From: Escherichia coli
GTDB lineage: Bacteria; Pseudomonadota; Gammaproteobacteria; Enterobacterales; Enterobacteriaceae
DNA length: 64,000 bases
NCBI RefSeq assembly: GCF_030384885.1
Contig: NZ_CP128613.1
Strand: one strand, 5' to 3'
Shown here: positions 51,175 to 51,185 of the stretch, piece by piece
How the letters are laid out: every line of letters starts with the position of its first letter
Position numbering within the stretch: position 1 is the first letter of the stretch
Notes under the pieces: model-generated
Seen by the model: only the letters and a program-made list of their open reading frames with translations
What the model was told of the DNA's origin: nothing
Databases searched by the model: none
Position numbers and translations under genes: made by a program

Positions 51175-51185
51175 GGGAACGACTT

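Follow-up and report, generated by a model that had tools for sequence, protein, structure and literature searches.

The eutA–eutB junction and its operon

The window, by which we mean the whole 64-kb stretch of DNA analysed here, carries a 17-gene eut operon in which eutB follows directly on eutA (Table 1). Read directly, the junction runs ...cgcatttccttccTGA–GGGAACGACTT–ATGaaactaaag..., comprising the 3′ end of eutA, the spacer and the 5′ end of eutB. Sequence and open-reading-frame coordinates agree on this arrangement, bearing out two claims of an earlier, sequence-only reading of the window, namely that eutA and eutB are directly adjacent with an 11-bp spacer and that all 17 eut genes are contiguous on one strand. 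Each gene has the length of its K-12 orthologue, and amino-acid identities range from 97% to 100%; gene names follow those that RefSeq gives to the near-identical strain 2013C-4282.

The gene order on one strand is that of an EUT1-type locus, and, of its signature enzyme genes eutB and eutC and the reactivase gene eutA, the products of eutA and eutB are recognised over their full length by Pfam profiles. The EutA product matches PF06277 (E=7.9e-179) and is identical to its K-12 counterpart at 458 of 467 residues; the EutB product matches PF06751 (E=1.2e-204), with 451 of 453 residues identical. EutC, assessed by orthology only, shares 293 of 295 residues with K-12. At the upstream end of eutA, its GTG start and the eutH stop share 4 nt. 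Sixteen of the 17 frames are open, the exception being eutH with one internal stop, so that an EUT1-type locus with all frames open is not what the window holds. Within the 216-bp eutG–eutH intergenic region, tandem units of ~100 bp and REP/BIME type occupy 48333..48517 (1.9 copies, 92% matches); one unit matches the Rfam family naRNA4 (RF02564, 70.1 bits), and the repeat pair is also found in K-12.

Immediately upstream of eutB, a Shine-Dalgarno-like GAGGGA begins with the last two bases of the eutA stop codon and extends into the spacer, and we infer from this position that it is a plausible ribosome-binding site for eutB. The possibility that the junction conceals a promoter, a terminator or an RNA element was considered and rejected: within 50900..51500, ~300 bp on each side of the junction, neither a promoter-like site nor a + strand terminator-like site was found, and the sole Rfam match in 38000..60000 is the REP-type one between eutG and eutH. 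The absence of promoter- and terminator-like sites at the junction fits transcription passing from eutA into eutB.

Table 1. Features of the eut operon and of the eutA–eutB junction, in window coordinates
Feature	Position	Strand	Description	Basis
eut operon	40851..55735	+	17 genes, eutS-P-Q-T-D-M-N-E-J-G-H-A-B-C-L-K-R	K-12 comparison; RefSeq annotation of 2013C-4282
eutH	48548..49774; TAG 49436..49438	+	Ethanolamine permease/facilitator with in-frame TAG	Translation
eutA	49771..51174	+	Ethanolamine ammonia-lyase reactivase, 467 aa; GTG start, TGA stop	ORF list
CTTCCTGA core	51167..51174	+	Putative empty attachment site (attB), single copy; includes eutA stop codon	K-12 junctions; alignment overlap
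GAGGGA	51173..51178	+	Shine-Dalgarno-like; GA of eutA stop plus start of spacer; 7 nt before eutB ATG	
eutA–eutB spacer	51175..51185	+	GGGAACGACTT, exactly 11 bp	Sequence
eutB	51186..52547	+	Ethanolamine ammonia-lyase large subunit, 453 aa	ORF list

Comparison with K-12 and the putative attachment site

Alignment to K-12 MG1655 splits at the junction into two blocks, one running from eutA to acrD (window 51174..26628, 95.3% identity) and the other from eutR to eutB (window 55725..51167, 95.6% identity). What separates these blocks in K-12 is annotated as the cryptic prophage CPZ-55 (NC_000913 2558691-2565480, 6,790 bp), which has no counterpart in the window. In MG1655 it lies directly after the eutA stop codon and before the 11-bp spacer, with intZ and yffL–yffS on the opposite strand. 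The insertion thus maps between the eutA stop and the eutB start, where the sequence-only reading had placed it, and that reading was also right that CPZ-55 separates eutA from eutB in K-12 and is absent here. Blastn with the K-12 region gave no match of CPZ-55 DNA in the window at E<=1e-10, and tblastn with the nine CPZ-55 proteins gave none in the 64 kb better than E=0.3, ruling out that the prophage has moved elsewhere in the window.

Exactly 8 bp, window 51167..51174 with the sequence CTTCCTGA, are common to the two K-12 alignments. In K-12 the eutA-side junction reads ...ccttcctga–ATGCGG... and the eutB-side junction ...TTCTTCCTGA–GGGAACGACTT–atg, from which it follows that CTTCCTGA is duplicated at both ends of CPZ-55. 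This agrees with a published 8-bp duplication, given as the reverse complement TCAGGAAG, with the insertion right after the eutA stop (PMC6379469). In the window, by comparison, CTTCCTGA occurs once at the junction rather than twice around inserted DNA, and only 11 bp separate the two genes, with no intZ beside eutB and no cargo between eutA and eutB. In a three-way alignment the window reads as the K-12 eutA 3′ end followed at once by the spacer and eutB 5′ end of K-12, and it neither gains nor loses a base. Given this single copy and exact joining, the window carries an empty attachment site; on these alignments the junction is the putative attB of IntZ-type elements.

At the level of the operon (K-12 b2437-b2462), K-12 and the window are alike in their 17 genes, gene order and gene lengths, and their sequences coincide through the junction, from the final 35 nt of eutA across the 11-bp spacer to nucleotide 14 of eutB. 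They differ in that K-12 has the 6,790-bp CPZ-55 and the duplicated CTTCCTGA, neither of which is present in the window, and in that eutH is intact in K-12 and carries a stop codon in the window.

Occupancy of the site across genomes

The unoccupied state is common. A 121-bp junction query was uninterrupted in 4962 of 5426 complete E. coli genomes (~91%), and a 2.8-kb eutA+eutB query was uninterrupted in 4964 complete E. coli genomes. In 5080 E. coli records the match that best fits the 121-bp junction (51120..51240) was at least 99% identical to it, and full-length matches that were sampled were 100% identical. Uninterrupted EUT1-type loci of E. coli and Salmonella enterica have the same 17-gene layout with eutA directly before eutB; their junctions are no different from that of the window, which is set apart from them by its probable clade I lineage and truncated eutH (see below).

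In the remaining ~460 genomes (8.5%) the junction is interrupted by varied elements, close to the 8% of 638 strains reported with an insertion at this site (PMC6379469). Full-length CPZ-55 (>=99% identity) was detected in 213 genomes, nearly all of them, among the matches listed, K-12 laboratory derivatives, and in ~200 further genomes nothing but an intZ-like integrase (80-90% identity) was detected. One of these, the O8:H28 strain BMH-17-0027, has at the same site an element of 12,992 bp that encodes an IntZ homologue and is accompanied by the CTTCCTGA core and the 11-bp spacer (L005 20001..32992). Joining its flanks gives the same empty-site result as joining those of K-12, and the spacer GGGAACGACTT is identical on the eutB side of the inserted elements in both strains. 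The first ~2.7 kb of the BMH-17-0027 element, comprising intZ and a neighbouring hypothetical gene, share 89.5% DNA identity with CPZ-55, of which the element is a longer relative; it also encodes an HNH endonuclease, a helix-turn-helix protein and many hypotheticals.

The eutA/eutB region has been described as a ‘prophage insertion hot spot’, with a different prophage there in a urinary isolate (PMC6652756). A family of elements that carry an integrase has repeatedly targeted the 3′ end of eutA, which is unoccupied in the window: the target of the IntZ-family elements (CPZ-55, the 13-kb BMH-17-0027 element and the ‘novel prophage’ of UPEC U71), CTTCCTGA with its flanks, is present, whereas no such element is. 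Occupancy has a measured consequence, in that the insertion in BW25113 abolishes eutB induction and growth on ethanolamine (PMC7617246, PMC11334477) and scarless removal of the prophage restores that growth (PMC11334477). The state of the junction in the window is ordinary, and the insertion point and 8-bp duplication are already published.

Lineage of the window and the eutR–hemF island

Over three collinear blocks totalling ~33 kb, the window is 95.3-96.0% identical to K-12, far from the >99.9% core DNA identity to MG1655 expected of the K-12 lineage. The sequence-only reading had concluded that the window is therefore non-K-12 because the prophage is missing. The origin is correct on the strength of this divergence, but the step from absence to origin does not hold, as the K-12 derivative DH5α is prophage-free as well. 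In DH5α (NZ_CP076470.1 3181569-3189689) the junction is empty in the same way as in the window, with flanks matching MG1655 at 100% over 4,055 bp on the eutA side and 99.9% over 4,089 bp on the eutB side. XL1-Blue is likewise reported to lack CPZ-55 (PMC11148124), and one laboratory's W3110 stock is reported as eut+ and prophage-free, while BW25113 carries the prophage (PMC11334477). Because such prophage-free K-12 derivatives exist, absence of CPZ-55 alone cannot exclude K-12, whereas sequence divergence does.

A near-identical complete genome is that of 2013C-4282 (NZ_CP027579.1; human stool, USA), which differs from the window by nine substitutions and no indels over ~59.5 kb (positions 15317, 37395, 45130, 49064, 49437, 52179, 54917, 57995 and 59140). 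The two are collinear, and both have the empty junction and the eutR–hemF island; they differ at eutH, where 2013C-4282 has TGG (Trp) and the window TAG, and at eight other single bases. Six of the differing positions are alignable to K-12, with the window allele matching K-12 at three and the 2013C-4282 allele at the other three. Nine differences of such mixed polarity indicate that the window comes from a close sister strain of 2013C-4282, and that it is 2013C-4282 itself was rejected on the same ground. Since PMC10100065 counts 2013C-4282 as a completely sequenced member of Escherichia cryptic clade I, the window probably belongs to clade I too, a lineage separate from E. coli sensu stricto. 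For eutA–eutB, the next best match among 5,423 genomes is 96.9% identical.

The distance to E. coli sensu stricto varies from one part of the window to another. At dapA–dapE (17000..25000), nine other genomes reach 99.0-99.1% identity, as against 96.9% for the next best genome at eutA–eutB (49771..52547). This suggests a recombination mosaic in this probable clade I chromosome.

Between eutR and hemF lies a 3.86-kb island (55736..59588), where K-12 has ~15 bp. Its genes specify two proteins with Sel1 repeats, one T6SS immunity protein of the Tli3 family and a 221-aa protein without a Pfam match; a gene for a DUF1963 protein runs on the opposite strand. Most of the island is present in only 2 of 5426 complete genomes and some part of it in 28; in the 14 other genomes listed, the shared part is the DUF1963 gene. 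It looks like a small orphan-immunity gene island.

A nonsense codon in eutH

The internal stop in eutH results from a G-to-A change at 49437 that converts Trp297 to TAG and leaves a 296-aa N-terminal fragment. Both 2013C-4282 and K-12 have G at this position (TGG), so the allele in the window is derived. An exact 296-aa EutH product is called on 10 contigs of other public assemblies, including GCA_036346665.1 and several Logan run assemblies, and the GCA_036346665.1 contig matches window 45548..52438 over 6,891 bp with one mismatch. Recurrence of the same product in other public assemblies led us to reject a sequencing error or other artefact, and on this sequence comparison the TAG is taken to be a natural allele of a small clone.

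Ethanolamine diffuses through the membrane at neutral pH but is protonated at acidic pH, and it is under acidic conditions that EutH is used; in bovine intestinal content, wild-type EHEC outcompeted an isogenic eutH mutant (reviewed in PMC5821096). The natural eutH stop also overlaps the eutA start codon, so that a premature stop 335 nt upstream could lower expression of eutA and eutB by polarity. The operon had been called uninterrupted, and this is accurate for the prophage site but not for eutH, with its nonsense codon: it is free of prophage interruption, yet not fully intact.

History of the site

We regard the junction as an ordinary unoccupied one that very probably, and most simply, represents the ancestral arrangement; no observation contradicts this. 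With its integrase and duplicated core, the element is by nature the derived insertion, and the simplest reading of the sequence is a lineage in which the site has never held an element. The polarity rests on the frequency of the empty state (91%), the probable clade I position of the window and the published Salmonella operon, which is drawn with the empty state (PMC7617246). The description of the arrangement as ancestral is thus well supported, as something that we infer rather than read off, since precise excision leaves the same sequence.

In this reading, eutA and eutB would form part of a single transcription unit, the eut operon, expressed from a point upstream of eutS, with predicted co-transcription across the junction, and the eutA stop codon together with the 11-bp spacer would carry the ribosome-binding site of eutB. 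The last 8 bp of eutA, CTTCCTGA, would serve as the attachment-site core for CPZ-55 and its relatives with an IntZ-type tyrosine integrase. No such element has integrated in the window, which leaves the site in single copy and the operon unsplit. Integration would break transcriptional continuity while sparing eutA and the putative ribosome-binding site, as the duplicated core reaches no further than the eutA stop codon. Such a break is in line with the published finding that BW25113 has lost eutB induction (PMC7617246).

Alternatively, a CPZ-55-type element may once have been present and been precisely excised, restoring the arrangement. Precedent exists in the clean single-core junction of K-12-derived DH5α, and likewise in XL1-Blue and the W3110 stock; the DH5α state is consistent with precise prophage loss in some laboratory lineages. 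The ~8.5% of genomes interrupted by varied elements also point to real traffic through the site. Nonetheless, excision invokes two extra events where none is needed, and in all of the nearest relatives checked (2013C-4282, GCA_036346665.1 and Logan run contig L007) eutB stands directly after eutA. No prophage remnant was seen in the 64 kb, but precise excision is scarless and the sequence is neutral on this point. Taken together, we judge a past occupancy in this lineage very unlikely. That a prophage was collapsed or dropped in assembly has nothing in its favour and a practically negligible chance, given the same junction in independent assemblies, namely the complete genome of 2013C-4282, a draft at NCBI and a Logan run assembly with eutB 11 bp after eutA, and its occurrence in 4962 other complete genomes.

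A broader proposal would treat CPZ-55-type elements as reversible switches of ethanolamine use, with the window in the ‘on’ state. Integration would block eutB and the later genes and precise excision would restore their expression, and the site might be kept as a target through the overlap of its core with the stop codon of eutA and the putative ribosome-binding site of eutB. Compatible with such a role are the coexistence of occupied and empty states within K-12, the use of the site by at least two different elements, and the ethanolamine growth regained on scarless prophage removal (PMC11334477). The window itself gives the proposal no support, and we consider it very unlikely.

Significance

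There is nothing new about the junction in the window, and the result matters little in itself: the window is marked as a non-K-12 Escherichia with the usual eut layout, and the textbook difference between MG1655 and most other strains is confirmed. Two points are of practical use. Presence or absence of CPZ-55 is an unreliable marker of K-12. Furthermore, the ability of this strain to use ethanolamine is not to be read from its intact eutA–eutB junction alone; the junction is insufficient for this because, in the same operon, eutH is truncated.
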